Source: Botryllus schlosseri
Taxonomy: Eukaryota
Length of the DNA: 64,000 bases
Direction of reading: 5' to 3'
Assembly (NCBI GenBank): GCA_051294905.1
Contig: CM119379.1
Location: 25,172,001 to 25,236,000 of the forward strand
The position numbers were made by a program, and so were the translations under genes. Positions 11,199-56,782 of the stretch are shown here, in pieces; position 1 is the stretch's first letter, and each line of letters begins with the position of its first letter. Under the pieces are notes generated by a model, which was not told the DNA's origin, made no database searches, and saw only the letters and a list, made by a program, of their open reading frames with translations.

Positions 11199-14100
11199 TT
11201 ATTTATTCTTATGTGCGAGCGGTTTCCGGCTTGTTTTCTTCGTCTTGTCGGCTTTTTTGGGCGGTGGAGCGGGATTGGCAGACATGTGCCTCCCGTATAA
11301 GCTGAGGAACGAATAGAATTTGAGGCCGGGTTATAGTACACTGACCAGATCGGCAAGTTTAGAGGAATTAATTGCACGCTGCATTAGATTAGGGTTGCCA
11401 TACGTCCGGAATTTCCCGGACATGTCCGGAATTTCACTGTTAAAACTGCGTCCGGGAGGAATTTCTAAAATATGCCTAAATGGCCGGGATTTTGATCACT
11501 TGAAGTAAGCTCATCATTTTTTCCTAAATCAACATAAACAATATTATTTTTGGGAAGATGTATGCTACATGAAATTTTTCTTCGCGCTGGGCGCGATCTA
11601 GTGTCACATATATTGGTTTTAATATGGGGACTACCACCCTCATAAAACTGCGATAAAAATAAATAAAAACAACATTCATTTCCAGAAATAAGTCTAATTG
11701 TAATCGCAATTACAAGATAACGGTATATTCATTGAGTCGGTATAGGCCGTTTGGATGCTTCATTCAAAGATAGTGGTACTAAACCTGGGGGGTAGTTTGC
11801 CTTTATTCCAGGGTTCATGAAGATGTTGAACGCAAGCAATCAGCTTCCAAAATAGGCCGCGAGTAAGTCTGGGCAAATGTTCCGCCCTTTAGTAATCAGT
11901 TTATCAAATTTTGAGCTGGAATACGGAACATTTTCAATTGGAAAAGAAGTTTCAACCATAAAAGATTGGAAACCACCGGATGTGCGGTATTTATATAGCT
12001 CAGCCTCAGTGGTGTAGTGCGCACTGGCATTAGGATGATAAATAACTTATCGGTGTGACATGAACATGACTTAACAATGTACAATTACGCTCCTTGCATT
12101 TTCGAAGTCATCATCCTCTCTACCATATTGATCGACAATGAGTTCATAGCTCATTTTGAAATCCGGTGGTGGGCGCTAAAGAGCATCCGGGATTTGTCTT
12201 GCAAAAATAAGGTAACCCTACATTAGATGGCTTTCGCCAGAGGAATAAAGTAAAGCAAAAGCCTTTTAAATAGGAGTCTGCAGCTGTTTTGAGAAGAATA
12301 TGATAGGCTGATTTTACGATTGAGCGCTGCGCAAGCTCTGCAGTAGCTCAATTCATGCCAGAAATATGTGTGCAGAAAATTCAGTAGCGACATCCAATAG
12401 TCGCATAATCAAAGGTCATGAAACAATAGTGTTTGATACAACTCACGACTAGGGCCGGTAAGGGACATTCACGGTAAAGTTAATAATCTTTCATCACGTG
12501 ACCTGACGTGTCAGTTCTTAAATGACAAAAACATGTTCATAATGGGCGTCATTATCCTATAGAATTCACATAGTGGCCGAGTAACCGTGCTCGATTACGA
12601 TTCTACATGGCAGATTGCGATAATGGCAGCAATATCAAGTATTCACATACAACCAAATTTCAAAACTGTGAAATTTTAAACTTTTCCAAATTAGACTAAA
12701 ATTACTGAATGTGCGAAAACTTTGAAATTGAATTAAATTGTGTATTAGAAATAAATACAACTAAATTCAAGTTAAAATCAGAGTCCATTCTCATGACTCA
12801 TGTCATGAGCATGATAATGGCTAATGTCTGTACACCAAGTTTGGCTCGTATCGTATGATACAGTTCTCCTGCACTATTTTCAGGAAATTCAGAAATTAGA
12901 TTGAAATTAAAATTAGAGCACAGAAAAAATTTCACAAATCAGACCATCGCTATAATTAGTATAAGATATAACTAGTATTATCTAGCTGTCCAAGTCTGTA
13001 TACTGCTCCGCTTAACAGTCATAACCAACGACGAGACGAAACCGGTGCTATAAAATCCTATTGTCAAGGAATCATTATCGTCGTACATAGTCAATACAGC
13101 TCAGATACTTACTACTCATAGGTCTCCGATTTGATGTATTCGAAAACGTGGGTGATTCCGACCTGCAGCTGATCTCTGATGGGTTGAACCCAGGGATTTC
13201 GGTCCAATTTAAAAACACCTTTCGATCCGGTCAATTCCAGACGCCCTTCACATTAACAAATTGCTTATCAGTCTGCGAGAATAGTGACAGTATTCGTAAC
13301 GCACCTATCTCGGGTGGCAGTACTGTTAATCGATTTCCTTGAACGTGCAGCTCTCGGAGTTTCCGCAAGTCACCCACTTCTTTGGGAACGGAAACCAAAT
13401 CGTTGTCTCTCAAGCTAAGCTGGAAAATGGATGGATATTTTAAAGAAAGCAAATATTGAAAATAGATACAAAAAATGGGTGAGCTCAGCAACACTCCACC
13501 ATAGAAATGATATTTGACTTACAATTTGCAGGTTATGAAGTTTGGACACTTCAGGTGGAATGATTTCGAACTCGTTATCAGCAAGATACAAGGCACGTAA
13601 CGATGCTGCAAATATAACGCAGGCTCAGACCTCCATCAAGTTGCATGCAATCAATGATTGTAGATTATGAGATGTCGTTGAAGCAAGCCAATTATTTGTT
13701 TTGAGTTCTTTATTCCCGAATATTTTCGGCCGACACTCATCAGCGTTAATCGTCATCACCTTAGTGCAGCGCTTTTCAACCTGTGTGACGGTTCGCACTA
13801 GTGCGAATGAAAAAAATTTCAGTGCGAATGACGAAGGTGGTGTGAATAGTGCGAATGAAAATCCGGATCAAGTGCGAATGAAAATCGTGATTAATTGTTA
13901 ACTTTTCTAACATGGAATAATTCAAATAAACCTAATAGGAAATTAAATATCAGTGTAACATTTGTATAGTTGCGACGCAATTGTAAAAACTTAATACGAC
14001 GCACCACTAATCGTAGCTCTCATAAGCCGTAGTGAATTGATATTCATGCACTATAATTTTTACGTAACCAAAAGCCGGGTTTGGAAGCTGGTGTAGTGGC

Positions 14101-17100
14101 AGTATAGAGATCTCTACAATCTATATAGTGGCATACATACAGTATATCAGCCCGTCTGAGCCTGCGACAGGCTGGAAAAATGACATCAAATTGACTTTCT
14201 GCTTTTTTCGCTAAACAATCATCATATTTTCGTAATAACTGTTGGATTAGCGCGAGGCGCGAGGATAGTAGTAAATACTCTCATCACAGACTCACATTTG
14301 CAAGTCACTGTAACGCAAATTTTTAACCTTTCAAGAATTATTGAAGAATGGACCGCAAAGGGTATAATTTTGGGTCGCCACGGTGCCACAGCTATCTGTT
14401 AATAAGTATGTAATATTTATTGAATTTATTGCTAAGAATCCTGCGTTCGTTTTTTTCATATCTGACATCGCTGTGTTGGGTACTGTAGCCAATAAGCGAG
14501 ACTCGCATTAAATGTGGCTTTATCATGAGAATTCATAAGATTTGTCCGACTGATTTTTCTTGAAAACATGGCCGAAGATCGTTGGGATGAGCTAGCGTAA
14601 GGTGTGCAACGAGCGAGTTCAGGCCTATGAGACTCATTCATTTCGATGCCAAACCCCTTGTGCATCGGAGCACATGAAGACGTGAAGTATTGGCGAACAA
14701 ACCGCTGATAAAATGCGGCGCCGAAAAGATATGCGACGACAAAACCTCAGTCTAAATATATGACCGATGCTGGATGGCCAAACCTTTCGAGATGGATTGG
14801 ATATGCGGCACAGAATAGTCCCGTTCTTGCAATCTGAGTAGACATTAGTGCAACTGCCATACGCAGACGAATTTAATTCGCCCTAATTTAGAATCGCGTG
14901 CGTCAAACATGTTTTGTAGAGCTGTGTTGGGTAGAATTGTGGTCTGCGCGTTCTGTCATACATGCCCGTAAAATCGTAGCATAGAACTGTAATATTAAAA
15001 ATAAATTCCTTTTCAAGGGTAACAACTGGAGCCTCGTGGGACCTTTGTGTCAGCTCTGAAAAACGATTTCTGCCAGCAAGCATTTTTTCACTCGCGAAAA
15101 ATACGCTATATGTTGGATAGGAGTGCAAAACAGATTTTAGGACCTGGCCATCCAAGCACTAGTAGACGTTTTTGTACAAATTCCCAACAACATTGTTTTG
15201 CCTAGAAGGGTTTTAGTGAAATAATTGAAAGCAAAACGAGCGAAAAAAGCTGCCTTTTTAATGAGACCCTTGATAGCTTAAGCTACATATAGTAACCAAT
15301 TTGTTGCACACCTGAACAAAATATTGTTAAGTAGGTCTATCTTCATCTTCTTTTTGTATAACAATATTCGATTGGTTTGTGCGAATGAAATTTATTTTAC
15401 AAAAAAAGTGCGAACGGAGCTCAAAAAGGTTGAAAGGCACTGCCTTAGTGAATTGAAAAGAACATTCATTGTATATCAAGAATCGTATCATCAATTGTAT
15501 AACTGATTGTTGAATGTTGATATACATTATTCTTTTTTATTCTCTGCTAGTTGCTGACGGTTACCCCTAACGAGTGTAAAATATTCAGATTTATTTCAAT
15601 ATGAAAGTATTATTCAACTTTATTGTCTGCCGACCCCATTACAACCAAACTCTTACCATCCAATGACAGATCATATTTAAAGGCATTAAACTTTGCTATG
15701 AATTGTGGTGTGACAAAGTTCAGGTATCACAATTAGACATTATTACTACGTGTTTTGTTAACGCATGCGCGGGTCTTGTTGATTGACTCTCGATAATAAC
15801 AGTGACTGCATGAATATATGCACCAGCACCAGTCAGATTTTCATTTCCAATACATCACCAAATCAATAACTTCAGTCAAGGACGCAAAAAATGAATGAAA
15901 AGGGGTATTGATTTCAATTATATTTCCCAATTTCCACAAACATCAGAAATAAAAGATCAACACTTCCACAAATTTTGAGACAGGCTGAAAGATGAATGAC
16001 CAAGTAACACGATTTATTCTCATGATGGAAAAAGAAAGAAATCATTGACAATTTGATCATAGTTTCTTCAGTTTTGGCGATTAAGATATCTCGAGTGTAT
16101 GTCAATCCCTAATGCTGTGTTTGAAGGGGGTCGATCAAGTAGGCTGTGCCTAATCAATAGTCAGCAAAACACTCATATGCACAAGTCTAGAGAAGCCTCA
16201 AAGCACCTGGTAATTATGCAACTTTCCAAGAATTCACTAGGTATGGGTTGTACGATTTTTCCACATCATTTAAAATATTACTTCGAATGTAAGTTCCAGC
16301 AAGCTAATTTTCTAATGCATAGCCATGTACTGTACATTTTGCACTGGAATTCACAGGTAATCGTTGAACACGATTACTACAGTGCATAAGGTACCGAACT
16401 AAATACAATACTCACTCATGAAAAAGAAGTTAGCAGGCAATGATTGTTCTGTGAGATTGTTATACGACAAGTCGAGAATTTCCAGCTTCGGAAATGAGCC
16501 GAATCCCCTCGGCAAATGATAAAGACGATTCATCCTGAAAAACATAGCATTTAGATTCGAATATAAAAATTCAACGGTAGGTCAAAGACACTGAATTGAA
16601 ACCGTATTCCTGGAAAATCCTCGACAGAGCATTATGATCTACTCAATATATGGGAAAATCACAAGGAAAAACCCTGCTTCGCTGAGCATTGGGAACTTAC
16701 ACACACAAGGGTTTAAAATATCCAAAATATACACACGGCCCACCTTTAATTTTGTTATTAGTAAAAACAGCAGGAAAGAGCAAAATGTGGAATAAATGGG
16801 TTTTAGAGTTGTGCGATTATTCATCATCTTCACATTACTCGAATGCCTTATATTGTTAAACTTTGCCAAGTCGTTTTGGCCTCTTTTGAAATTATAGATA
16901 GCCTATTAAGCCAATAAAATAGACAAAATGTGATTGTGATATAAAAGGAAGTATGAAGCAGCACTTAATTAACCACATTAATAGCAATAAAAACGGCTTC
17001 ACCTAGATGACTGCTTCACAGGAAAAAAAATGAACATCACACAGCAATATCCGAAATAGTAGAAAACTCTCAAGAATATCTACGTGTGGTAAGAATATGG

Positions 17101-18701
17101 TAGAAGAACAACAACGCGCATACCCTAAGTTGAGATGCTTCAACTGTTGCATACCGCTGAGAGACGTTGGCAACTCTTCGATTGTGTTATTGAACAGGTT
17201 CAGTAGAGTTAAATTCGACAATTCTCCGATACTCGGCGGTACTGCGGTCAGCTTATTATGGCTCATGGTGAGCTGTGTCAGGTGATCCAGCATCACTAAA
17301 AGCAAAGAGACATCGATCAATGTTGCGTTAGTCACAAGACAAAACACAGAGGTTTCACTTTCACATGCTTCATCAGCAAGGAAAATGAATTGCAGAAACT
17401 AGGTTTTAATAACTTTCTAACGTACACAACTCCGAATGAATACTACAACCCATACAGAAAGAAGCTGCTAACGCAGAAAAATATAATATTGATTCTGAGG
17501 TCAGTAAATCAGTAGCATCTATCAAAAAATGTTGCAATTGCACAGTGGAAGAAAATATAGATATTGATATACCACATTCAACCAGGGAAAAATGTACGAC
17601 CACATTAGGTAGCAAAACAATTCAGCTTCACTAGCAACATTCTCAAGATAATTACTCTTCACTTTTGCAGTGTGTGCTACACATGCATGACTGGATATAA
17701 ATAAACCGTATATAAGAACACGCGCCTCAAGAGTTGTATTCATTTCACCATGAACCCTTCCACTACACAGAGAGCACACGCATCACACCCAAACACTCCG
17801 TGTATGGTGAGGTACAGTCAACAATAATAAAGCAATAATATTTTTTAGGATTGGGCAGCTGACACCAGATTAGCTGTCATAAATATAAAGGGATTTGAAC
17901 ATACTGAGACTTCTTGTCTTTAAATGAATTAACTACATACCTTGCAGATCTGTATCTTATGAAATGCAAGGAAAATGTAATTAGCCAATAATCAAGTAGC
18001 ATTAGTTGATTACAAACATAATGGGTTTAACACATGTCTAATCAGGGGCCAATAACCAAGTAGTAGTAGTAGATTACAAACATGATGGGTTCAACACATG
18101 TCTAATCAGGGGGTCAAGAGCCTTTTCAGGGGGGCACAAAAACTTTACAATCTCTAAATGTACTTTAATATAACAAAAGAAATAGATTAAAATACAATAA
18201 ACTAATGGCACTTCTTGATCACAACTTTACTTTCTTTGTTTTACTGTTCGATTTATTAATATTCTAAGATTTAAGCTGGCTCTTTCCTTTACCAAACCAG
18301 CAATTGTGACATTGTCGGAACATTAACACTGAGTTCAACCATCAATGTGGTAGGCCTATCTTGTTGCTTGTGTGTTGCATTTACGTCATTTTATCATTCC
18401 AGTCACTGCATAAACCAGCTTTATAATTAAAGTAAAGTTTCGTCATCTTTTCAAAAGGTTGAAAAAACAGAGGGAGTGGGGGACCATTGACTTTTTAAAT
18501 TTTCAATTGGGCCCTGGTCTAAGTAATTCTAGCTACCTTGAGATTATGTGTAAAACATGCACTATTAGTAACCTAAAAGAAGTATACAAGCTTACTCAGC
18601 CCAGGAACTTCATTGATGTTCTGTATCCCTTTATCGCTCAGATCGATTTCCTTACACCGCGAGTCTTTCGCATCTTCCACGATTTTCTTAAGCTTCGACA
18701 T
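11199..18701 (-). CDS. RSU1: Ras suppressor protein 1 (LRR protein), 276 aa, 7 coding exons
   Basis: Exons (minus): 18701-18596, 17295-17124, 16534-16416, 13605-13523, 13419-13305, 13245-13113, 11301-11199; all GT-AG, phases consistent, 831 nt in total. Translation MSKLKKIVEDAKDSRCKEIDLSDKG...SHNKLTAVPP...QGNRLTVLPPEIG...NPWVQPIRDQ...YLYGRHMSANP...SRKPLAHKNK is recognisably RSU1. A probable 5' UTR intron donor (GTAAGT) lies at 18782. Confidence 0.97.
11390..12220. mobile_element. hAT MITE family E, copy 2 (in last RSU1 intron)
   Basis: TIR TAGGGTTGCCATA / TAAGGTAACCCTA; perfect TSD CATTAGAT. Confidence 0.9.
12650..12998 (+). mobile_element. Partial CAGACTTGGACAACTAGA-family MITE (right end)
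   Basis: Ends in TCTAGCTGTCCAAGTCTG like 26119-26136; left boundary approximate. Confidence 0.65.
13767..15442. mobile_element. hAT non-autonomous element in RSU1 intron 3
   Basis: TIR CAGCGCTTTTCAACC / GGTTGAAAGGCACTG; perfect TSD CCTTAGTG; GTGCGAA subterminal repeats at both ends. Confidence 0.85.
18043..18516. mobile_element. hAT-like MITE in RSU1 intron 1
   Basis: Ends CAGGGGCCAAT / ATTGGGCCCTG; flanks GTCTAAT / GTCTAAGT (degenerate TSD). Confidence 0.55.
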
Positions 18702-20683: not shown

Positions 20684-21325
20684 CTACAATAAACAGCAGC
20701 ATTTCTTGCATTTAGCAACACACCCACCGTCGTCGGGATCGCTACCTGCCTTGACAGCAGTTGCCTCTTTGTTTTTCTGCTCTTTTATTAGCCTTAGTAA
20801 ATCAAAGAACACTTTATCGACGTTACTTCTCGTCTTTGCTGACGTCTCCACGTACTGCACACCCATATTGTCGGCAAATTGCTGCGCATCAGCTTGGCTT
20901 ACTTGACGTTTGTCTTCCAAATCTGATTTGTTACCGACCAGAATAAAGGGTATGTTGGTCGCAGTGGATGAGTCGGCTCCCTTCACGCGCAGAATCTGAT
21001 CACGAAAATCCTGTGTGTCGTCGAAGGATTGCTTTTCCGCTATAGAGAAAACGCACAAGAAGCCTTCTCCGCTTCTAAAGTAATTATCTCGGATAGCAGC
21101 GTAATCTTCTTGCCCCGCTGTGTCAAGTATGTCGATCTGTTCGTCTTCGCCATCTAGAATCACCTTTTTACGGTAGCTGTCCGCTTTGGTTGGTTCGTAG
21201 TCTTCAACAAATTCGTCGTACATAAACTGTAGTGTTAACGCGGATTTCCCGACGCCTCCGCTTCCGACCATTATTACTTTGTGCAGCGCTGGTTGCGCAT
21301 TGGATTTATTTTTATTCGCCGCCAT
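20684..21325 (-). CDS. RAL: Ras-related GTPase Ral (RalA/RalB co-ortholog), 213 aa, uninterrupted CDS
   Basis: MAANKNK start (ATG at 21325; the ORF track begins at an upstream GTG), P-loop GSGGVGKS, Ral-specific effector loop [24 protein letters not shown] and C-terminal CCLL CaaX box. Confidence 0.97.
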
Positions 21326-21544
21326 TTGCGATTTCACCTCTTTTTCAATTCGTTATTGTAAGATTTCGCCTTGAAAACAGTAACAACAACTTATCAAATC
21401 TGTGATAAACCGCGCCCACTGACACAATCTCCTGAGATGGGATGTATTTCTTGACGAGCTCAGTCAACCATAACATGACGCTTGCGCGATGTATCATTGA
21501 TAACTTGTACCTTAGCCTATGCTTGTACTTTCGGTTTCAGTTCA

Positions 21545-24853: not shown

Positions 24854-26421
24854 CAGCGGTCGGGAACCTATGGCTGGCGAGCCATATATGGCTCTTTTGG
24901 GTATAAGATATGGCTCTTTGCCAAATATTTATTTTTTTACTGAATTGTTCAATATTGAAGCAACTTGTTAGTAAATATTTATCACGACCAGAATAATTAT
25001 TCTCGTGACCGTATAAACATGTCTTTTTGAGTGGTAAAGACGATGCCGCCTTCAGGATTAGAGTATCGATAGTCATTCATGAACATCGATAGTAAATACC
25101 AAGAGTAATTGAAGGTTTCACAATTTCCGTTCACTCATCCTGGCGACAGGTGACGAACTGCCCCACTTGCCTGCCCTGTCCCCACGCCACTGATATATCA
25201 CACGTACATCTAACCAGACTTGGACAACTAGAAAATTTTCAGCTTTTTCAAATTAGATTAGAATTATAATTAGAGCTACACAGTTTTTTCCAAATTAGAT
25301 TAGAATTAGAATTAGAGCTACACAGTTTTTCCAAATTAGATTAGAATTAGAATTAGAGCAACAAATATTTTTCAAATTAGATTAGAATTAGAATTAGAGC
25401 TACACAGCTTTTTTCAAAATTAGATTAGAATTAGAATTACTGAATTCGCAAAAACTTGGGAACTGAATGAAATTGTGAACAAGAAATAAATACAGCAAAA
25501 ATCAAGTTCAGTTCATATCAAATCACAATGCGTTCCCATAAGCATCAGAACGTCTGTACACCAAGCTTGGCTCGTTTTGCACTGACCAGGGTTAACCAAG
25601 ACGCGGGCCACATGCGACCGGCGATCTGATGTGTGATTTTGGAAAAACGCGAAGTAAAGCATTTTGAAATGCTGTGATTGATTTCAGTTTCAAATTATTG
25701 TTGTTTTTTCAAAATATGCGATTCGCCTGTGTCCAACAACACTATTCCGCACTAGCAGAATCGGCTTCGGCGTTATTATTCGTCACAATTACTACTATGA
25801 TCGTACGTACGGTGTAAATGCGATGGCGGCTTGGCAGTTGGCACTAGATTTCCCTGCGCGAGAGGGATATTCTTGTTAACTAGCTGCAAAATGTCGCGGG
25901 CAATGAGGCATTTTCAGTAGAACAATAAATTAGATTAGAATTAGAATTAGAGCGTAGGACCATTTTACAAATTAGATTAGAATTAGAATTAGAGCATTGC
26001 ACCATTTCACAAATTAGATTAGAATTAGAATTAGAGCATTGCACCATTTCACAAACTAGATTATAATTAGATTACTGGCATTTCGCTCTAATTTAGTGAA
26101 ATTAGACAACTAGAATTATCTAGTTGTCCAAGTCTGCATCTAACATTGGGTATATACTGCTGTAGTGATCATGTTTGGCTTCACTCACGCATGTGATCAT
26201 AGGTTCCCGCATTTAGAAGGAGCATCACGACGAAGCTACGTTCTCGTAACTCAAGTTTCGCATGCTCGAATAATGTTACCAGCATGATTGATACGAGTTT
26301 TTACAGAGCAAATGAGGCGCACACGACGAATCCCATGTAGTGAGTTTGCAATAGTGCTAGCATGACGTCACAAATTTAAAATTGTGACGTAACTTCGGAC
26401 GAAAAAGGTTCCCGGCCCCTG
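24854..26421. mobile_element. hAT MITE family A, copy 2 (opposite orientation to 6448)
   Basis: TIR CAGCGGTCGGGAACC / GGTTCCCGGCCCCTG; perfect TSD GCCTAGAC. Confidence 0.9.
25215..26136. mobile_element. Full-length CAGACTTGGACAACTAGA MITE with AATTAG-rich tandem units, nested in family A copy 2
   Basis: 18-bp perfect TIR; perfect TSD CATCTAAC; tandem units of about 43 bp containing AAATTAGATTAGAATTAGAATTAGAG. Confidence 0.9.
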
Positions 26422-28650: not shown

Positions 28651-29404
28651 CATAAATCTTGCTTATTTTTTTGGGGGGGGGTAAGACTTTAGTTTGGGAT
28701 ATAACCGTCGTCATGTGTATGATTTAAAATGCCACAAGGAGGCATAAAAAGGGATTGCAACAGTAACTACTTACTTGGGTGCATTTCAGATATTATACAT
28801 CCACATGAAGTGGTTTTTACATGCCGTGCTGGCAAATTTTTCCAGATAATGGAGAGAAAGAAATACCGCTAAAATATCCGTCAGGTAAGTTCACTGGTAT
28901 TCTATTCAGATTTTCATTCTCCATGGAAAGGAAGCATCAAAACAAACAGTAAACAGTATCCTCGGATAAATTCGTCAAGACCATTGATATCAAAAGTTGG
29001 TTGATTTAATAGTTTTACAGACTTATGAAAGTGTGGAGGATGTACTGGACAAGTCCATGATGCACTTTAATAGGATTTTTTAACATAGTTTTGTTCGCTA
29101 TGCCTTTTAGAAAAAGCAAGCCAAAATTTCTATTGAAGGAGGTATCTAAAGTAGGTAAAAATTAGCCTTTCTCCAAACAGTTTTTTTCCCTATGGGACGA
29201 GTGCTGCCTATTCCCATAGGGGTTCCTTCTGTCGCCAAGGAAACCAATGCAAAGGTTGGAACCTTGACGTGGTGTGTTGGCTTTTTACACTAATACCGAC
29301 CGGCAGCGTCTCTCAATACAAATCACTTGTAAATTAAATGATCTTCATTGAAAACTGAATAGACTCTTGAAGGTACAGAGCTCAAACATACAATAAAATC
29401 ATAT

Positions 29405-29450
29405 TGAAATATTTTCGGCTGACACTCATCGGGGATTATTGCTAGCAACA
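29405..29450 (-). ncRNA. Degenerate hammerhead-motif repeat (inverted partner of 29468)
   Basis: Minus strand CCCGATGAGTGTCAGCCGAAAATATTT; U4 is mutated. Confidence 0.5.
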
Positions 29451-29467
29451 ACAATTCTCTACTAGTT

Positions 29468-29512
29468 GCTGACGATCACGCCTGATGAGTGTCAGCTGAA
29501 AATATTCGGGTT
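29468..29512 (+). ncRNA. Minimal type I hammerhead ribozyme motif (best-preserved copy)
   Basis: ACGC-CTGATGA-G-TGTCAGC-T-GAAA-ATAT-TC-GGGT: all core nucleotides present, palindromic helix III (AATATT), helix I 3 of 4 bp, upstream GCTGAC complementary to loop II. Confidence 0.7.
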
Positions 29513-30104
29513 AATTTTAATTTAAATGAAGATCGTCCTGGACAGTTGAACAATCATCATCTGAACCACATGGAGTACTTTGTCTGTTTGAATATTTTCT
29601 GTTGTACCTTGTTTTCAGATCATATTTTCTGCAGACTGTGGATGCCGTAGAATCGTTCCATACTGAGAACAGATATACCAATGGTATCAAATTAGCATAT
29701 TCGTCAATGTTACTCAACAGCGTCATAAAAAAAATCGGTTACAAACTTACAACTTCACACTGTGGAGCTCTGTACACCAACACAAAGTCTCATTCCCAAC
29801 CTATACATTGGATACGCCAAATATCAAAAAGTAACAGACATTATCAATTGCATATATATATTCAAAAATTGCTGAAGAGTAGAAAATTTCAAATCACAAT
29901 TCTGAATCAGTTAGGCTGAACTTTTCTTGGATAGAGAAGTCAGTTAGGCTGAACTTTTCTTTGATAGAAAAGTTCAGCCTAAGTCAATAATCAGACTGCT
30001 TGAAAGAAAAATCCTGAAAAATAGTTTCATAGTAACATAATATGAATTGATCACCCATAATTCATTCAATTTATAATGTAGGCTACCTCAAGATTGGCAC
30101 AATT

Positions 30105-31962: not shown

Positions 31963-32070
31963 ATTCAAATATATTTCGATTGAATGTTATATTCAATATT
32001 TATATTTAAATGAACCCGAATACGCTGGTCACGTCATATTTTGTGATACTGTTGATGATATGCGACGATT

Positions 32071-32115
32071 GCTGACGATTACCCCCGACGAGTGTCAGCC
32101 GAAAATATTCAGATT
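32071..32115 (+). ncRNA. Hammerhead-motif repeat copy (U4 mutated)
   Basis: GCTGACGATTACCCCCGACGAGTGTCAGCCGAAAATATTC. Confidence 0.5.
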
Positions 32116-33552
32116 CATTTCTATATGAATGTTGAATATAGGCTACTACTATATGAAGTTCCGTACCTCCAAGAAGCTCTTCAAATATATTTCAGTTGAC
32201 AAATATAGCACCATCGTTCCTGAATTAGGTAATTGTCGAAGAACACTACCATTACATAGGTAATCCTGGATACCACCACCAGTGTGAGCTGGGTCAAACT
32301 GTTTTCTTCGTCCAATCAATCGAGTGTTGGACACATATTTTACACCCATGTTCACCAACACCTTTGCCTATTACGGCTCGCATTCCGATTTCCTCCGGAA
32401 GAACCCTTCATTGTAAGAATTTCTGTGCGCACTCCTTGCTACCCGACTCCAAGAAAATATATCGAGAGCAGCTGCGGCTCGACTCGAGTCATAGGCATTA
32501 CCCTAAAAGGGTTACCATATTTTGGAATCGGTAAAGAAGGACACTTTTATCAAATCATAAAAGTTAGTTTACCGTACTTAAAAACAGATGATTTCTGAAT
32601 ATTTACTGTAGATCTTGTAGTGTTGACTATTCAAAAAAAGTCTACACTTTGGCTCGACTCCCGAATTACCAGCTTTTTACGTTACTTTTGTGGTGTTGAC
32701 TGAAGAATAGGCATCACTCTGATTTGACTGCTGAGCGACCCACTCGAACGTCCGCATTACCTATTTCGCGTCGTTTATGCCGTGATTTAACCACCAAGCT
32801 TGACTGGTTCGGCGTGGTCTGGCATAGCCTGTATAAAATTACGCATATTCACCGCCCACACATTTAAATGACACTGAAAAAATTTGATAAGTATAGACTT
32901 AATACACTTGAAATATTTGGGTGACTTAAAACTTTGGAAATAAGATTGCAGTAACTTGATCCCGACACTGGTCTGCGATAAACCATTTGAAAATATGGTT
33001 GGCGGTACCATTAGCTGCATCCTCAAATACCATATCCTACTTCTGAGGAATGCTTGCGGAACAGCCATCCTTGACCACTTCCAGGTTCCATTTTTCAACG
33101 CCTCCCAACCATTATGGAATCTCAGTAGCATGAGCATAAGTCATCAAGCTAACGAAGAAATAAACAAATTTCATCATCTATCAGAAGAGCACGAATGACT
33201 CAACGCATAACTGTATTCAATGTAACTGTACATCCAGAAAGAATTGATCACATATGAAATAAAAATTTGGCCAACCTACTAAACGTCCTTTCCGACGCTT
33301 TCATTCAGAAACAATCACAGTTTTCATGAGTATGAAATGAACAATGAAGATCTGGATATAGCGTTGAAATCTCCAATCAAGATTCATGATGCACTTTCTC
33401 AAGCATCGATAAGCTTCAGGCTTCAGCGCTAGTCCCAATGTCTATGTTTCACTACTTTCATAAGTATTGCATGCAGAAAACACCAGCTAGTGACGACTAC
33501 ATAATCTGATTTGTACATGTATACATAACATAGAGTCTGCCTTGATGTGCTG

Positions 33553-36500
33553 TCACTGCAAATATGTCTTGATAGCCTTGTCAATTCGAACCCGGCAAAC
33601 AGGGCAATGCCGTATTGCTTCCGTGCAATTCCTACAACAACACATGTGCCCGCACGGCACAAACACCATGTCTGCCTGGTTTGCAAAACAGATTTTACAC
33701 ATTCTTTCCTCTTCGATTCTGTTGAGAGCTTCCTGCGAATATGAACATAAACTGGTCAGGTATAGCTCGCGATTTGAAACGGATTTGCGTGGCATTAGAA
33801 ACTTCCCATTATTTTATTCTGTATTTGATTCAATTAGTAGAGCTGGGCACAATGGTTCGAGTCGAGTAGTGAGAGAAATTTCTTTCGAATACTGAAATTA
33901 TGGACTCTAATATTTGGTGACATCTAGTTCATTAACGCTGTGGCACTTGGAATATACTGTTTGGACACAATTACGCATATGCTACATATCGAATGCCGCT
34001 TCTGATAGCTGTGGTCAAGTTGAATTGAAATTGACACAATTTTCGATCACATTATTCATAAGATGGATACAAAAAGCATTACCTGTAGGGATGCGGACGA
34101 CTCGGCTGGTTCTGTAGCAACTTGCTTCGTATGAGTGACTAAAAAACATCACACAATAAGCATGACAATAGCAAATGTACGTACACCAAGCTGGGCTTGT
34201 TTCGCACTATTCACATAGTATTTTTCAAAAATCCAGAAATTAGAGAATTAAAATTGCAACATAGTACCTTATCCTGAATTATATTAGAATTAGATTACCA
34301 GCATTCAGCCTAACTGGACTACCAGATAATTCTAAGTCTGTCATGAATGTAAATACATGAATTGAATATATACCGCTGTTCAGACTGCTTTCCGCAACCA
34401 TCGGTTCTGCGCCGTACATGTCGCGATCGTCATCCTCATCCATCATGGAGACATTGTACTTTCCTGACCCGGGGGAAGGCCCCAGCGACGACGGATGGGG
34501 GTTTGTGGACTCTGAGCTGTACACTGTTGTGTGTTGTTGATTAAAAATCGCCTAGCATGCTGACAGACTTCCTAATCCTATTCCTAAACAACTAGGGCCC
34601 GACCTTTGAAAGAAATATTGGTATTGGCCATTAGAGGTAAAAAAATATCGGCACAAAACGGTTGCTAGCAGTCGTTGAACTATAATTTCGATTGCTAGAC
34701 TGAAAATATTGATATATCTATTATAGGTTACTGGTGTCCATATAAGGGTTTTAACCAAGTCAAAAGGTTCCGGGTCACAAGTCAATCTCACTTTTATAGT
34801 TTTGACAAGAGTCAGGTCGAGTCATTTTCAATTCACCACCGAGTCAAGTCCGAGTCCTAGTCGGCAAGCAGAGAGTCGAGTCCAAGTTATAGTGTTATGA
34901 CTCGAGTCCGATTCCAAGTCAATGGGTTTGTTCAGTTTTGAGTACAATCCGGTTCAACCCACTTTTTTCAACTCGGCTCGCATTCATACTATCGTAGTTT
35001 TTCTCAGTCCTAACGGTTTCTGGCCCAATCTTGCAAGTATCAGGACTGATAGACAAAATACCAATCATGTGGTGACTTTACTATTCTTCGAAGTTAAAAT
35101 GAAATGTCCGTCTTGGCCGTCCTAGTCTCGAGTCATGCACGATGACTCGAGCACAAGTCGAGTCAATGCACAAATTGAATCGAGTCAAGTCACCAAAAAA
35201 TCGAGATTCGAGTCATTACAACCCTGGTTTTCACAGTGGAAAATATACTCAAAAGCATGATTTTCGTTGATAAATCAACTCCTAGTGGCACGGAGTGTAC
35301 AATTTGAGCACTCGAATTATTAGAGTCAATACTCGATTCAAATTCGAGTACTCGAATCAATGTGCTCAACACTACTAATACTATTCTACTTAGCCGCAAC
35401 GCTGACTGTTTTGACCCCCTCAGTGAACCACCAAATCATCAACTACAATTTTTCCCACTATGGAATGTTTACAATATAATATAATTCAAGAGAAAATATA
35501 TACTGACTTGATGGCACCGATGATACTGCCATGCTCGACGGGCCAGGCATTGCAGCCGCCTCGTTCAAGCGATTCTGTTCTTCTTCCTTTTCCTTCTCCA
35601 TTACCGCTTCCAGCAAAGCGGAGACGGAATCAAAAATATCAATCGATTCAGAATCAACCCCCCCGGCGTCTAATTTCTCTGTCAGCGCTTGACGTATCTG
35701 CAGAAATGTCGACACGGTGATATCACCGCAGCGGCGGTACCTACGGTTACATTCCAGCCTCACCAAATGTTCGGAAAAGCCCATCACCAAAATGTTTTTC
35801 ACGACGTCCGATTCCTTCAACGCTTTATCCACTTGTTCCTCTTTTTTTCTCATCTCCTCCTGAAAATAATCCACCAATCACATCAGACAATCTGTGCGAT
35901 ACATTGTTGACATACATTTTCCATTTCCTACCAGTCGCCGACGATTGCCCCTGACGAGTGTCAGCCAAAAATATTCATGTTTATTTCAATATCAATATAC
36001 TATTCAATTGTCTACGGAATTCTGTACCTCGAAGAGTTTTTTTCCGATATATTAACTGCATTAGTCTAATCTGGATTGATTTTCTCTTTTGTTTTTCCTA
36101 TTATAGAAAATTTTACTTCTCTTACCATACAGAACACTGTATTACGTGTATATTCATCAAAATATATGAGGATCATATATCACTCTATGGCTTTATGACG
36201 TTTGAACATTCGAACGACCATGTAGGCTCTGGTTTGACACAAAGATCGCCACAATCATATCGCAGGTACCAGTTTTGTGCCGCATATTTTTGACCGCTTC
36301 GGTAACGCAATAAAGCTATCGGACGCAAATTCAAAAATTTTGACGAGCCGGAGAAAAGAAAAATTCTGGGCATGCACAAGTTTGACGATCTTCCCAGAAG
36401 GAGCATAGATTTTTACTTACTGATTGCGACCGGCATGTCACTTTCGGTTTGCTTCTTTAGATTTTGGGACTTAAATTTTTAGTTAAGTAGAGCCTTTCAA

Positions 36501-39500
36501 ATGAAAATGGTTAATGAATATTTACTAGTTTTACAATTTCCTCATTCATCCGCACTTTCTTGGAAAGTAACAGTATCAAAAACCAAGTCCAGGCAAAATC
36601 GAGTACCCGGGTGATCTGATTCCGGGTTTGAGCATTAAGCTTCGAGTCAAGTCGGGTAATAGAGTTCCACTTATTATGCTGTTGTCACAGTAATAGGCCT
36701 AATGACAGGTTCAAATATACACAGTTTTTGCGTCCACAAGGAAAATGATGATGGATGCGTGTTATCCATAATAATTTTGTATTACTGGACCATGCCTATT
36801 CCGCTGTGGTTAGTCACTGCCACTTGAAAGAAATGTCGTTAGTTGCCGAAATAAGACTAGACGAAGTTTTGGGGCTCCAACGGTGGAAGCACAGTATTGA
36901 AACTCAATTTTTATTTGATAAAATATTACTCCTGAAGATTATACGAAATATTACTCTTGAATAATATCGTATCGAAATATACCCGTATATTTTCGTCTCA
37001 CACTGGTGAGAGGAAATCGTCAGCAACTAATAGGGAATTGAATATAACATTATATATCAACAATCACCAAATATGTGACGATTGTTGATACAAAATTGTT
37101 CTTTCCAATTCTCTACTAGTTGCTGACGATCAACCCTGACGAGTGTCAGCAGAAAATATTCGGGTTCAGTTCAATACGAATATATTATTCAATTACATTA
37201 TATTGAACTTCTGAACCTCAACGAATCTCTGGTACTCTTGGAGCATTTTTTGTTAGAAAAGTTTTGCGCTGCCACAATGAATACAGAATAATATAACTTA
37301 CCCTTGGATCTACAATGGTAGGTGGCGGTGTTGGTCCGCGGGCGCTTCCGGCAGGTGGAATATCTTCCGGTGTTTCATTGCCCTGTCCTTCAGGATCCAC
37401 AGCGGCACCCTCTTGCCGCGCGATAATCGGTCTCGAGAGATGGGCCGCGGTGGACAGGTGACGATAGACGAAATGCTGGCCTTTGACGCTCAGCAAAAAC
37501 TGACAGTTTGGAAACCATTTGGCGTGCTCGACCCAGGGAGCGTCTTCGTAGTCCCAATGCTGGAGACCTCCGTTGCAGTACCAGCATTTGACGCGGTCTC
37601 TCTCTCCTGCGCAAAAAATTTAAGGTATTTCTACAACTAATAACTATGTATCAAACTTTCATATCGGATCTTACGCAAGACACTAAAATTATACTTATTA
37701 GTATCATGAACTACAGTCGAGTCTGCTCAATTCAACCAAAGTGTTCGAATCAGTTGTTAGTTAGATTGTACAGTAGGCCTAGTGTATTTTGATACAAAAC
37801 GATTCAAGAATTACTAGCAATATACTATTTACTGTACTACAGTGTTAAACACACATATAGGGCAGTAATAGTGGCCTACAGTAATTTTTCAAGGGCTGAA
37901 AGACTATCTTCACCCGATAAAAGTACTCCACAAAACAGTAGGAAAGAAAGCAAAGTTAGCCAGATAACTCTTGTGTACCATTCTGTTATACAAGACGGAC
38001 GCAATTGTACCGAAGTAAAAGCAACTATAAGGCTGGCTCGACCTTATACGAGTTCATTGTCTATTGTTAGTGAATGAAACAGCTTTGTTTCACCATAATC
38101 GCTCGTCTTTTGATGAAACGAACAAAGTACTGTTGATTGTGTCATAACGTAACGATAAGAATTGCCACCCTATGTCCGAATTAAGCTGAGAATTGTCCGA
38201 AGTAACCTAGTTTGTTACTTGCAATTTTTACTTTTCTTGCGTACTCGAGCATTTGACCCTTTCAATCCCAGACCATTGTCTCTGTACACCTCGGATTCCT
38301 TGAAAATTGCATTTAATTGCACATTATCCAGGATTCATAGACTCACTAGTTTTCGGTTATTCGACGCGTGTGACGCATCACTATTTAGATCGCATCAAGA
38401 CGCTCTTCGCTGTATGATTTAGGAATCATTTGGAGAACTAGATGTAACCGTGTGGGGAAATCTTCTGAAGGTGGTTTTGCGGTGAGAGAATATTCCCTCG
38501 AGAAGTTGTGGTAAGAACGTACTTTTGGCTAATTTATTTACATGGTTCTAGATTGAATATATTGAAATGAAGTGTAAGGTATTGCTTGTAATCATGTAAA
38601 TATTACAGAAAAAAAAAACGGGAAGGGTCAATCAAGTCTTATTTGTTTTGTAACTCAGAAGTAACATAGGTGTAGGTAACGCGTTGGAGTGCGTCTGAAA
38701 AAGTGTATCTTCATTGTAGTTGTGAGTTGGTTCACAAGTGGAGCTGGCTGAGAGCTGTGATCTGGCAGGAGAAGGAAGACTTGACCATCACTATATTCTG
38801 TACTGTATGCACCTTATTTTCATCCGGTGTTCAGCTTTGTCTCATTAGATATATACTCAAGCAAAGATCATGCCCATAGATGCTATTCTTCATCAACTAC
38901 CCATACTGTATAATATAGTTATTATGCTATTTTGTTAGCTGAAATGCATATTTACTCATTTCTTTCATTTCACCTTTCAAATTCATTATTTATATGTACA
39001 TATTGTCTTGATTTTATCAACAGGTTCTACCAAGATACTGGGTGAAACCAAATGATGTACCCGTAAATGAGGGCATGCTTGTCATAAAAACGATGTAAAA
39101 GATTTGATGATTTGGTTCTTTTTATTGACCTAGCGCAAAATCAACAAGGACAATTTTGAACGTACTATGCAATGTATGGTGTTATTATAGTATACTGATG
39201 TTATCAAAAAATTATTCAACAAAAATTTCGTGAAACACGTCTTGTGGGGACAGATATAAATTGTCTAAGCGAACGCCTGGCACAGTGGCACACCAGTGAA
39301 GGGTTTGATAGCTTCCTTGCCTTACCGCAATGGGCGAAAGTCTCCTGTCAATACGTTCTCAATATGTTGGTGCTAGCTCGGAGTATTGGACAAGATGGCA
39401 TTCACTACTGTACGAGCGTACGTACCCTGCCGATCAAATCGCGTAGTTGAGAAGGTTAGCATTGTTTAATCATCAATCATATTTTATATCTGTGTTAGAG

Positions 39501-42500
39501 CTCACAATTGAAACATGTTTTTCGGATTTGATTTACGGCTACTACTATTGTGCTATATATTATATAGTATATAATGTCAATTGAGCCTCACATCGCTTCT
39601 ACCATTAAGAATAATATTTAGAATATTGCATTAGTGGACTTCCACGTTATTTCTGGTCCAATCAAAATCGGTTAACGTCCTAATCGTGATGTGGGCATTT
39701 CGGAAACACAATCACCCACTCATATGAGGGGGTTGGGTCTCAAAGAGAATCAACATTCCGATCAAAATTTTAGACATTTTAATTAGAATTCTAAGCGGTG
39801 TCACTTGTTGATGCATCACTCTTAAATATTTGCACTATCACTGTGACATACAAGTGTCCAAAAACAGATCATGTGTTAAAACACTTTCAACTAAAGAAGC
39901 AAGATTCCCCAGGAATCCCCCAGAGATCTCTAGATTCATGCATAGCAACCAACCAAATATGGATACTGAACTACAGATTTAGGGGTCCTTTGTTGTCGGT
40001 ACAATGGAGGCAATATCATAACAATGTAGCTACCATTTGGTGAAATAAAACAGAGATGATGCAACCTCCCTTGTACTAATGAATCCATGGTAACAACAGA
40101 GCAGCCTTAAAAACTCAGAATAGTAATTAGTATCGAATTTCCGTTCAGTAAGGAGCTGTAGCTAGTTTCTAAATGTACGTAGTTAGTCATTGATCGCTAC
40201 TTCGAAGTTGCAAGATGTATCTTCACATCTAACACAAAATGATTAAAGACGCTACAAACAGATGCAATTTTCAAAATAGATTCAGCAAGTAGGGGGCTAC
40301 TGTGACGGCAGTTTCACCATGTTTTTATTACGGTTTCACGCATAAAAATGATCCAAACTTACCTCAAAGCTACTTTCTACTTCTAAACTCCAAAATGTAA
40401 CGTAGTTCTGCTTAAAACCTTTAGTAATTGGTGCAAGTAGTCAAAATCTACTCGAGTACTTTGAAAAAGTAGGAGTAATGGTACTCTGTACTGACCTAAT
40501 CTGTCATATCCATTATCAGATGTGTGGATCACACCGGAATTGAAAAAAAAAAAATTTCAGCTTTTTTAGGTTACGGTAAATTAGAATTATAGGTAGGCCT
40601 ACATAGATTTTTCCAAATTAGATTAGAATTAGAATTATTGAATTCGTAAAAACTTGGAAATGGATTTAAATTCCGAATTATAAAGACATGCAACATAAAT
40701 CGATTTCCGTTCACATCAAACCAGAGTTCATTCTTGAATGGCAATTATCTGTAGAGCAAGCTTGGCTGGATTTGCACCATACAGTTCTCCTGTAGCATTT
40801 ACTGGATTAATTCAAAAAAATTAGAATAAAAATGAGGGCATAGAAACATTACCCAAATTAGATTGGATTAGATTACTGACATTCCACTCTAATTAGTCTA
40901 ATAAGACGACTAGAATTATCTAGTTGTCCAAGTCTGTATCCGACGTAAATTCATTACGAATGCATAAAACCGCACAATTCGTGGTTACTAACCAAGGAAA
41001 AAGAAACCGGCTTGCGCGATTTCGTCAGGCGTCGCGGCCATCGTGCCAACCGGCCATCTGCTGTCGAAGGTGTCCAATCTCGTGGCTTCGCTCCTCATGT
41101 GCGGATTCGAAGGAAATCGGCAGGGAAAGTTCCTGCGTCGCTCTTGCTGGGTCTCGGGCTGCGTCGGGACTGGATAGTTGCGAGTCTCGGTGCCCAGGAC
41201 AAATGGGCAGTTGGGAAAATGGGTGCGATGTTCCACCTGGAAAATTTCCATTCACAAATTTTTATAATCAGATTTGTAAATTAAGTGATGATACATTAGT
41301 ATTACGATGCATATTGGTTCTGAACTTAAGTAGCTTGAGTCATTTCTCATGAGTAGCGCTGGACAAAATCGTGTACTTTAGTGATTCGTTTCTGAATAGA
41401 GTATTCAGATAGCTCTCATTATGTCATCATAAAACTACGAGTTCGAATATGTACCTTTTATGCGACCACAAAATATATACTGCCATTTCTAGATTACATT
41501 AAAGATAAGAAATGTCATTTCCACTGTTCTGCATGGCTTTGTACTAGATGATTTGCATGCTGCGATAGTAGCAATCGAGGTTTCAAGGGTTCAACAATGG
41601 AGAAATAGTATAGAAACTATAATTCTACTTGATAAACTAACTTTTAGTGGCAAGAAGTACATAGCTCCAGCAATCGAAAGGATCATCTCTCAAGGCTGGT
41701 GCGCATTTGCGATTCTCACTCTCGCACTAAATTGACCAAAATGAATGAATACGTCATCCCTGAAGGAAAAGCGGGAATAGAATTGAGCGGGGATCTGCAT
41801 GTCGTCACTACCGTGCGTCAAGCTACTTTCACACGGAAACAAAATCGATCGATCTTCTCTGGCCGCAATTTGCACTGAGCATAGTATTCGCAGTGGAAAA
41901 TCAACAGTCGTTGACAAGTATGAGTATTGTGCATAGGCAGGACGATAAGGTCGGGGTAAGCAGCCAAATTGACCAGCCGACAGAAGGCTACTTGAATTTA
42001 CGCACTCTCACAATTGAACCCACAAAGGATCGGCATTCAATATTTGAAAACCAGTCAGCCTTCCCAGAATGAATTCTCACGGATGAACTCTATCGTTCTC
42101 TCCGCGTAAAAAAAAAACGAGAAAGAAGAGGCTCTTTACGTGCCGAGCAAGCAAGAGAAGAGAAGAGAAAGGAAGAGAAAGTAAAAAACACTGTACGCAT
42201 ACGATTTAAACAAGTCTGCACTATGCTTTACTACAAGACTTGAATCGTTACAATTAATAATGACAACCACCTTTTTTGCAATACCGCAATTCAAAATCAC
42301 TTCACTCATGGTCCAGTTGAATATGTTTTGACAGCTACCCAGTAATTATGTCATACAGGACTCTCATAAAACAAATACGGTACTAAAAGTATCCACTATT
42401 TTCCAGAATTCAAGAGACATAAAGTCACAGCATACCGGCACGCTGTCGTGTACAGTCCAATTCCTGAGTACTCCGGCACAGGAAAAGCATTGGGTTCTGT

Positions 42501-45500
42501 CCATATCTCCGAGATAGAAGAAGCCGTTCTTCGCTAAATCTGCCGGCGATACAGTCGGCCGTCTGGTTGGCCAGCGAGCAAAAGAGACAAGCCTGATAAT
42601 TCAAAAATACTAGATCCATGACCAGGAGTGTTATGTCTCCAGGTGATATCGTGGAATCCTTCACATATCACCGGACGAATGATAAATAGAGAAGGAACAA
42701 GTCATAATAATAGGAGAAAACGACAAGATACTACATCGCATTTTCTTTAGAAAAAGTGACACATCAATATAGGTATATATTTCGGAATGTTGCCTTGAAA
42801 CACTTCATAAATTAGAGTAGAATTAGACTACCGGCACTTTGCTATAAATGACAACTTGAAATAAATCTAGTTTTACAAGTTTGCTTGCAACCGCTGGTTT
42901 GTGAGAGCAGAGGTGTAAGTGTGTGACCACTAAGTTACAGTGGCTGTCAGAAGTAGCATATTGGTAATCGTGCAAAAAATATATCCGTATATCTGTTGTA
43001 ATTTACCTATCCAGCTCTCTGTTGAGATACAAACAGTTCAAGAACCGTCGGTGATCGGATGAAACCACGTTCGCCATTCTCCATTCTCTCGGTGGTTGTT
43101 GCGCCGTTGAGTTTCTGTTGACCAGGATACTTGGTTCGCCATTTCCATGGCCTTGGGTGATGATTCCACCTTGAATATTGAACGTGTTGCCAGGTCCGAT
43201 TTCGATGGTGCCACCTTCAAAACGATTGATTTAACGTAATTCGATATTTCATCATATTAACGGGACTAGCACCAATAAAAGTTGAAAAGTATCAAAATTT
43301 TCAATTTATTTTTTGGGTAGAATGACTCACAGTTATTTGAAAAAACAACATCCATATCTATATTTTGCTAATTTTCGTTAGGCCTAGCGCCTAGGTATAC
43401 CATGGTCTGAGTTACAAAACTTCGCAGCAAACTTTTGAAAACTGAATTTTGAGATTTCGAAACAAAATTTCTCCAAGATGAGTTGCGCATGATCCTCAAG
43501 ACTTTAGCAACATGTAGGACTGTCCAATTACTTCTTAAAACAGGCGTTAGATCAGAAAGGGGCATCACAATTTTGAGGTTATCAGGTTGTCGTGTCGGAG
43601 CACTATCCATCTTGTCAAATCCAAATTCTCTGAGATAGAACTACGATTTCTGATATTTTCTTTACAGCATAGAGACACCTAGAAGCGATGCAAATTCCAT
43701 GGTGATGGGGCTAGCCCTTCGCGAGATAGCGCTGTTGAGGTGCTAGAGACCCCTTAATATGAAAAGTAATCTGTTGAAAATTCCAGCAGACAGCTATCTA
43801 TATTTGTTACAACATTTATAGCAACGTGGCACGAAACTTTCATTTTCAGCATCTAATGGCATAACACGCATTTCACATCGATCAATATTACATTCCTTGC
43901 AGCTTTTGTGCAAATGTACACTCAGAAGTGGTCGTTAACAAAGTGCTATTACTTTAACCGAGTTCTCAAATAGGTTTCGCCTACTTGTACTTCTTGCTCA
44001 ATAAGTTACTCTGTGTATTTACACTGTCACTTAAAGCCGGGAGTGCACCATCCATAAACACATCCCAGTTGTCAGTCCCAGTCAAGCGGACGCGACACAA
44101 GAGAGATGAGGGACAAGGAGAAACGAGGAGCAGAAAGAGCTAGAGAGTGACAAGTTGCTTTCATGCGTAGGATTCCCATCCTTCAATCCCTATGTAGTAC
44201 ACGGGAAAAATAATTTGTTTCATTAGTGCTTATTACTGCTTATCTAGGCTACAGTGATTGATTTCGGGGCTAAATTTGCTATATGTCGCGATACAATAGG
44301 ACAATAGGTGCGGTGCCAACTGGTATTGATATTGACAAAGGAAAGCTCATTTGTTTGTTGTCATATGGGTTTGGTATGCGTGTATGAAGCCCTTTGATGG
44401 CCACTTCAAGGGCTTATATTCTCGTGTCGGTGTCGCTCAAAGAAATTACACATGCTACGATTCCTAAAACAATCTAATATCACTGACAGGAAAACATCAC
44501 AGTTTTTGTATTCTCCGAGTTTGAATGCATATTATCGAGACGTCACAGTCACGGCTGGGCGAATATTGTCCCCTATCAGTTGCTATGACACAATCCCACT
44601 AATATCACTGAAAGAGGAACACGAGACTATTCTGAGCACGTCTGCTTACCAAGCAGACTACACACAAAGCCTGCATAGTTTACAAGTCAAAAATACTCAC
44701 CGCCCCGCTGGACTCTTTCAGGTAGATCCCTCGGATACCGTACTCTAACCAAATCACCAGTTCTTGGATCCCGTTGCTCCAACACTTCAACCTGTTATAT
44801 GGAAGCAGATGAAATGGTCTGACGCTGCCATATACGTAGAAACTATGCCGGGATCGCACTGCCAATACTTGAAAGCAACTAAATAGATAATAACCTGATG
44901 CGGTCAAAGTAATCACCGTTACTACTCAAGTAGAGGTAACGCCATAAATTCCAACTAAATTACTAATATCAAGAGGGGAAGTAGGATATAAAATGCATAA
45001 CAACTACTTGGGCAAGTATTTTGATAAAACAGAATTGGTCAAGAGGCCACATGCTTTCAGCAGATATTCAGAGGTGGCGACATTTGAAATTACAGGTACA
45101 GGGGCACTATTTCACACAGTTTTTATGACAATTTCACTCACAGAATTTAAGAGATTTCAAATTACTTAGTAGAATTGGAATCGGTCTATAACCATAGTGA
45201 CCAGATATATTAATAACAAGACCTTTACCACAATCAAATAAACAATCATGGCATGCATAATAAAGATAAATTCAATTACATTTCAATATTATATAGCAGT
45301 GGTTTCCCCTAACTACTTGAGTGTCGGAGTACATATGTATGGTGCCGCATAAAAACCTCAAGCACTTGAAACAAACATTTAAAAGCATATATCTCCGGAT
45401 TACATTATCTGGCTAATTCGAAAGCATGCACATAGACTCCTACAGATTTTATATTTGTTATTTTAGCAATTATAGACGCAGATTTGCAAGCGTTATTCAT

Positions 45501-56735: not shown

Positions 56736-56782
56736 ATGGAGAATTTTAAAAACATGCATCTAGCTACATTGCATACTACCGA

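Follow-up and report, generated by a model that had tools for sequence, protein, structure and literature searches.

The dispersed short repeats in the 64,000-nucleotide stretch of Botryllus schlosseri DNA analysed here (hereafter, the window) are 5'-truncated insertions of an autonomous Penelope-like element (PLE) encoding a reverse transcriptase (RT) with a C-terminal GIY-YIG. On the sequence comparisons described below, we consider it probable that these truncated ends carry a predicted type I hammerhead ribozyme with a one-pair helix II, the loop of which is knotted with six upstream bases. The knot likely replaces the usual loop-loop contact and, by analogy with related ribozymes, may stabilise catalysis.

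The motif, its copies and the host element

The hammerhead motif that had been proposed at 29468 was borne out at 29468-29511 (+) by sequence inspection and by comparison with a young copy, and represents a slightly decayed member of the group that we call family A. The pseudoknot 5' strand (29468-29473) and a cap G (29474) precede the helix I 5' strand (29478-29481), core positions C3 to A9 (29482-29488), G10.1 (29489), loop II (29490-29496, with the knot 3' strand at 29491-29496), position 11.1 (29497; U in this copy and C in young ones), G12 to A15.1 (29498-29501), the helix III palindrome (29501-29506) and the helix I 3' strand (29508-29511). C17 is at 29507, and the cut is predicted after it. 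Relative to the young copy, the core is kept, with a G-G mismatch in helix I and a G10.1-U11.1 combination. The linker of the earlier consensus, GAUC, had to be corrected to GAUU, as read in young copies. An upstream CUGACGA considered as a second core was rejected, since its possible partner strand has no GAAA after it.

Comparison across families supported the type I anatomy with a palindromic helix III. Among ten family representatives the core is invariant except for U3 in one, and helix II is 1 bp with no extra base between positions 9 and 10.1. Helix I is open and ranges from 4 to 8 bp, and helix III is an exact palindrome in eight of the ten (AAUAUU in family A, AAGCUU in seven other families) and an imperfect one in M1 and M3. 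The Rfam hammerhead models gave no match in the window, nor in five loci with good copies (E up to 10), because they are limited for a 1-bp helix II. As the motif is missed by Rfam and by descriptors needing a multi-pair helix II, such ribozymes are undercounted.

Searches with nhmmer, blastn and a covariance model found 11 motif copies in the window. These included all nine copies listed in the preliminary description and two more, at 13715-13757 (-) and 15553-15590 (+). In addition, a loose core pattern matched 16 times, against a shuffled mean of 5.5, with none of 100 shuffles as high. The full catalytic core attributed to the copies was only partly upheld: core letters are kept in some, but compared with the young copy none of the 11 is fully intact.

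The 29468 motif lies in a 5'-truncated PLE end at 29452-29527 (+), spanning -55 to +20 relative to the cut and matching a natural tandem junction at 89% (blastn). Head-to-head with it is an inverted partner at 29356-29449 (-), listed earlier at 29405, in which U4>C breaks the core and the helix I 3' strand is lost. The two unlisted family A fragments are at 13715-13761 (-), with core letters intact and helix I and the knot decayed, and at 15512-15623 (+), with loop II deleted and a small inverted piece at 15446-15490. Another fragment at 32024-32188 (+) has a long tail (+74), a U4>C change and a small inverted piece at 31996-32022. Further downstream, an old family A fragment with a destroyed core (59769-59891, +) and one truncated within the core (60151-60204, -) were identified. 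The copy listed at 56688 does carry the motif, but belongs to a second element family, about 60% identical and with another palindrome. This family B fragment (56689-57055, -) comprises the C-terminal end of the endonuclease (60% amino acid identity to family A; tblastn E 9e-23), the 3' UTR and a decayed hammerhead (56733-56689), and thus joins the motif directly to a PLE ORF inside the window. A further PLE endonuclease fragment, 70% identical in amino acids to family A, is at 58265-58510 (-; tblastn E 2e-32).

Several copies had been described as antisense in introns of IAP genes. Three of the 11 copies do sit in an IAP-like gene, between a BIR exon (37218-37619, -) and a RING exon (33556-33813, -); two of them are antisense, at 35895-36035 (+), with G12>A, and at 37078-37230 (+), with C11.1>A and a helix I mismatch. 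The third, at 36967-37065 (-), is sense, has a destroyed core and stands head-to-head with the copy listed at 37122. The antisense point concerns two copies and shows nothing. Overall, the window copies are ordinary decayed transposon ends; single dispersed copies appear to decay neutrally and to be mostly inactive.

The window contains several other features. The IAP-like gene or genes extend over 33556-48051 (-), with a further BIR exon at 47704-48051. A long near-perfect inverted repeat at 10355-10751, centred near 10553 and with mirror ORFs on both strands, is probably a palindromic transposon remnant; its hairpin was scored by Rfam as mir-999, below threshold. An uninterrupted Ras-family frame of 222 codons, Ral-like by eye, occupies 20684-21352 (-); LRR exons come after it on that strand, at 17003-17398 and 13231-13518. 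At 25240-25439 and 25927-26071 there are two related tandem arrays of 41-42 bp that have an AATTAG-rich core in common. A frame at 60844-61245 (-) has no Pfam match and resembles the C-terminal end of a LINE ORF2.

The host element emerged from the 495-Mb genome, in which a 26-nt tight core has 4,670 exact matches (2,336 and 2,334 on the two strands of the assembly), against none for the reversed-pattern control. Two neighbouring core matches have upstream sequence in common over more than 1.4 kb, and in that stretch core matches 2.9 kb apart flank an inverted pair of RT and GIY-YIG frames with 1,480-bp arms and the motif after each frame. In a genome protein search in which 96 of 9,033 candidates were scored, nine of the 96 kept an 857-860-codon frame without interruption. 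At one locus, units of 2,692 bp are repeated in tandem, and every junction (pLTR) bears the motif, which follows the ORF stop by about 110 nt and precedes the AUG of the next unit by 14 nt. The 860-codon ORF of family A matched RVT_1 in Pfam (E 7.8e-9). Its GIY-YIG assignment relies on the motif in the alignment and on PF01541 in 2 of 120 homologues, Pfam making no GIY-YIG call on the query itself. By eye, the alignment contains the DKG motif and no extra Zn-finger linker, following criteria taken from the available part of PMC8557442. We found 3,215 homologues among 8,000 scored candidates (best 64%), and their first Met aligns with the AUG that lies 14 nt past the predicted cut. A search of viral contigs for relatives of the ORF found none.

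To describe insertion ends, we used 60 genomic copies chosen by the core pattern only. Their 5' ends are scattered between -25 and -1460 and pass without a break into the ORF, while their 3' ends fall at +12 to +38 in 36 copies, at +63 to +76 in 21 and earlier in three; in 26 of the 60 they lie at +28 to +38 after the cut. Truncation together with a two-site tail is reported as a PLE trait (in the sections seen of PMC8557442 and PMC11167929), and the two 3'-end clusters of family A match the optional 30-40-nt tail arising from two start sites. Inverted 5'-truncated partners are present at both window and genomic copies. At one junction (L092), the commoner insertion end (+28 to +38) falls on an AT-rich TT(T/C)AATT of the ORF start, which resembles the AT-rich targets reported for PLE endonucleases (PMC11167929, as far as its text was available).

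The preliminary description had instead proposed a non-autonomous ribozyme retroelement family, which would be retrozyme-like and spread via ribozyme-made RNA. Most copies are indeed short and non-coding, and at two loci there are internally deleted tandem units (359 bp and about 325 bp), every unit containing one ribozyme. However, the repeat forms the end portion of an autonomous PLE with unbroken 857-860-codon frames, and the short copies are ragged 5' truncations. Because of these truncations, the two-site tail and the autonomous copies, the non-autonomous reading is not supported. The 5' ends continuous into the ORF, the lack of any tandem period involving the motif in the window and the restriction of deleted units to 6 of 24 rows, at two loci, also speak against it. 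For the bulk of the copies it is already refuted, and as a general account we consider it very improbable.

The two exceptional loci, found among the 24 rows of one search, carry internally deleted mini-elements in tandem and inverted arrangement that end at the normal tail. At L307:683-2225 (C1, 37.767-37.769 Mb) the mini-element spans -146 to +222 with a period of 359 bp, and intact ribozymes lie 359 nt apart on one strand; at L317:1047-2301 (C9, 10.465 Mb) it spans -114 to +210 with a period of about 325 bp and one ribozyme per unit. As a side reading, these may be nascent retrozyme-like derivatives of the PLE.

Covariation between loop II and the upstream strand

The preliminary description had also proposed a 6-bp pseudoknot between loop II and the upstream hexamer. 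To examine it, related families were gathered without any constraint on the upstream sequence. In the genome, families B/C (about 60% amino acid identity to family A) gave 57 exact matches and families D/F (45-60%) gave 317. A pattern designed to leave out family A gave 66 matches; of 30 examined, 13 were decayed family A copies with the loop changed without compensation, and the rest were D/F loop mutants. Such uncompensated dead copies are as expected of neutral decay, and single copies carry no signal. From metagenomes, 80 of 510 relatives were kept. Nine of the ten metagenome loci with at least 45% identity and reaching the C-terminus carried the motif, forming four families (M1 to M4), and the remaining one, L153, had no motif within 330 nt.

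The ten families use seven different pairs of loop and upstream strand, all of them Watson-Crick: GUCAGC/GCUGAC in families A, B and C, GUCAGU/ACUGAC in D, GCCAGU/ACUGGC in F, GUCAGA/UCUGAC in M4, GUCGGA/UCCGAC in M1, GCGUCA/UGACGC in M2 and AAUGC/GCAUU in M3. Within families, hexamer pairing is perfect in 27 of 30 family A copies, in 18 of 30 B/C copies and, at a fixed offset, in 18 of 30 D/F copies (12 of type F and 6 of type D), the remainder being decayed or truncated. When one representative was taken from each family, the upstream window belonging to a loop was its best or tied-best partner in all ten rows, and only 0-1.7% of the other windows of the same locus pair as well. In a MAFFT alignment in which M1 to M3 are partly out of register, 83.5% of cells are paired, versus 65.4% when shuffled (0/500) and 21-45% when slid, and 17 cells are changed on both sides, versus 5.8 in shuffles (0/500); the ten families are kin, so that pair counts are not independent events and the shuffle figures are not probabilities. 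Four of the six knot pairs and three of the four helix I pairs covary, in agreement with the proposed knot and helix I, whereas G10.1-C11.1 is invariant.

As a control, a complementary run of at least 5 occurred in none of 21 core matches from viral and prokaryote collections, which are at chance level. In the single row of a long-helix-II ribozyme that was scored, the run was 2. The position of the pairing is also constrained: the Watson-Crick run ends at -8, that is 8 nt before C3, in eight of the ten families, and the base next after the knot strand is a G facing the first loop base (U or A), giving a G-U or G-A cap. We looked for a conserved helix IV and discarded it, as only 0-3 non-conserved Watson-Crick pairs are found around the knot strand. 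In eight of the ten families only 7 nt separate the knot strand from the core, with no arrangement of a helix IV with an A-rich linker.

A different origin of the complementarity has to be weighed, in which the motif is a catalytically silent relic retained for some other function, for example as part of promoter or translation-start signals at the 5' end of the ORF, and the pairing reflects a short duplication of the core hexamer. The family A upstream hexamer does repeat the first letters of the core, the motif overlaps the ORF leader and RNA reads show no ends at the cut. In families F, M1, M2 and M3, however, the loop tracks the upstream strand rather than the core (duplex energies of -4.8 to -10.1 versus +1.6 to -4.6 kcal/mol). 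Likewise, the core is invariant across the ten families but for one U3 while the ORFs are 47-62% identical, and helices I and III covary. We therefore regard the relic as improbable. Retention of a compensated knot in elements whose ORFs share only 47-62% identity speaks for selection on folding.

The motif was also compared with its surroundings in two subfamilies whose frames are unbroken, each represented by one copy. None of 44 ribozyme sites differs between them, compared with 8 of 100 in the UTR just upstream of the ribozyme, 342 of 2,529 in the ORF and 239 of 842 at third codon positions. The absence of ribozyme differences has a P of 0.026 on the UTR rate and 4e-7 on the third-position rate; by itself, the UTR comparison is weak.

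A tree of 24 RT/EN segments places the 12 rows with the knot on one side of a branch with 100/99 support, and the other 12, distant PLEs, have a long helix II. The tree was built from 24 hand-chosen rows, with segments from decayed copies, a midpoint root and no named reference elements; two family B rows were taken from the inverted neighbour of the ribozyme copy, and the label 'long helix II' was assigned by eye or proximity for L160, L173, L202 and L220.

Family M4 has two peculiarities. U3 stands opposite G8 in all copies examined (L143, L145, L148, L162, L164 and L205), with A8 in L161, and the ORF AUG overlaps the helix I 3' strand, 3 nt after the predicted cut.

The predicted cut, transcripts and insertion ends

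Folding predictions were not informative about the knotted state. The predicted minimum-energy fold of family A is inactive, with the core paired to loop II, and folding z-scores of -1.4 to +0.2 included none that was significant; minimum-energy folding cannot model the knot. The helix III dimer of family A is nearly energy-neutral (-0.2 kcal/mol).

In several families the predicted fold is a hairpin formed by the two hexamers. This raises the alternative that the pairing is real but acts as a brake or a binding site, the hexamer hairpin holding the core in its loop and keeping the ribozyme off until a protein or partner refolds it, or serving in protein recognition. Insertions derive from RNA reading through the site, and in the accessible text on the Anolis PLE its ribozyme cuts only with protein (PMC11167929), both in line with a brake. 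Against this, the hairpin overlaps neither helix I nor the core and can form together with them. A docked knot accords with the fixed end at -8 in eight of ten families, with the invariant G10.1-C11.1 and with the G-U/G-A cap at the place of the G:A cap in the solved pseudoknot (PK) hammerhead; without the knot the motifs would have no helix II at all. We consider a brake or binding site unlikely, and favour the docked knot.

RNA data were examined for ends at the predicted cut. No pile of ends was found there in three raw-read RNA runs, of which 3-6% each was examined, or in one contig set. Between 62 and 96% of mapped reads run on into other sequence, and read depth is low over the 5' half of the ORF. 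These reads are mostly host transcripts through truncated copies, and are therefore uninformative on self-cleavage; the depth was not taken as evidence on expression.

Of 24 copies that include the start of the ORF, none begins at the cut and 18 extend across the entire ribozyme; cutting therefore does not define the inserted ends. The cut is predicted 3-21 nt before the AUG in nine of the ten representatives (B and M1 by eye) and 41 nt before it in M2, and the cut product would thus keep the whole ORF.

In the mechanism that we propose, the knot would form first in a read-through transcript, docking helix I beside itself, with the upstream strand running directly into helix I and no helix IV. 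With so short a helix III a monomer would not suffice, and two of the predicted motifs would have to pair via the palindromic helix III to cut after C17. For PLE hammerheads, such two-ribozyme (dimer) cleavage is an existing proposal (PMC4209133). It would reduce a minority of tandem transcripts to unit length and place a 5'-OH immediately before the start codon; RNA left uncut (or rejoined) would serve as template, and reverse transcription would begin at two positions downstream of the cut.

A more specific version, which we put forward tentatively and regard as doubtful, is that in one clade of animal PLEs this helix-IV-less PK hammerhead of about 44 nt is intrinsically fast but dimer-gated, and that in tandem transcripts its cut 3-21 nt before the AUG switches the RNA from an uncut reverse-transcription template to an uncapped mRNA of unit length encoding the element's protein. 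Self-cleaving type I hammerheads before fungal-virus ORFs have been linked to cap-independent translation, with modest effects, in the consulted part of PMC13725137. A translation step for a PLE hammerhead is speculation, although the predicted position of the cut upstream of the AUG makes it testable. If true, the role of PLE ribozymes would lie in translation and not in insertion.

Comparison with known systems

PLE hammerheads, a dimer-type helix III and pseudoknot hammerheads with a 1-bp helix II are each already in print separately. We did not find in the literature a pseudoknotted PLE hammerhead lacking helix IV; the catalogue of short-stem-III PLE motifs of Lunse 2017, or Weinberg 2015, may show one. 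PLE hammerheads have been described as slow, without tertiary contacts and dispensable for insertion in vitro. Those of Cervera 2014 resemble the present motif in being type I, with a palindromic helix III and an invariant G10.1-C11.1, and in occurring as thousands of dispersed truncated-PLE copies, with opposite-strand pairs 100-700 bp apart. In contrast to the single pair found here, their helix II is long in the material available (7-8 bp in Schistosoma, at least 3 bp in rows of Fig. S3), all the rows of that figure that we examined having a multi-pair helix II. They also have an extra base between positions 9 and 10.1, which is missing here. Hidden tertiary contacts were tested there in one motif and none was found, whereas here the loop pairs with an upstream hexamer.

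With regard to the element itself, a close likeness is PAc of Anolis (Frangieh 2024, PMC11167929), for which the accessible text describes an RT with a C-terminal GIY-YIG, tandem units and a ribozyme at the pLTR-ORF junction, and also two reverse-transcription starts in the ORF, an optional 30-40-nt tail and no RNA-seq ends at the cut. PAc differs in having a canonical stem II and a cut 26 nt downstream of the start codon, whereas the cut predicted here is upstream of the AUG. In vitro, according to the same portion of that paper, ribozyme mutants had no effect on insertion, cleavage needed the protein and uncut RNA was the template, the last of which is in line with insertions here not using the cut end.

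Metazoan non-LTR retrozymes (PMC7229834; bioRxiv 10.64898/2026.07.22.740005), as far as their published descriptions were available, are likewise type I with a weak palindromic helix III, and in those same excerpts are proposed to derive from PLE pLTRs. They consist of 170-400-nt tandem non-coding units, whereas the element described here is coding and has such units only at two loci.

Knots between stems I and II are used by about 40% of natural hammerheads, according to the available part of Perreault 2011 (PMC3088659). One example described there, a type II ribozyme from a metagenome, has a 1-bp stem II and a 6-bp knot and is fast and knot-dependent, losing activity 20- to 100-fold on shortening of the knot and being rescued by compensation. 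That ribozyme is type II and metagenomic, unlike the present motif; repetitive type I motifs were excluded from the stem-length analysis, and the portion consulted gives no PLE context.

A structural counterpart is the PK hammerhead (Weinberg 2015; PDB 8YDC, Zhan 2024, PMC11300833). In the sections available to us, it shares with our motif A9-G12, a single G10.1-C11.1 and a loop wholly engaged in a 6-bp knot, as well as a distal G cap opposite the first loop base and a partner strand 5' of helix I. In the solved structure the knot is capped by G:A, and a rate of 16 per min is given in the same sections. The two differ in that 8YDC has a 5-bp helix IV whose loop contains the partner strand, together with an A-rich linker triplex, neither of which is present here, and in that its helix III is stable, whereas the one described here would need a dimer. 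If active, the PLE motif would be among the most compact natural pseudoknot hammerheads.
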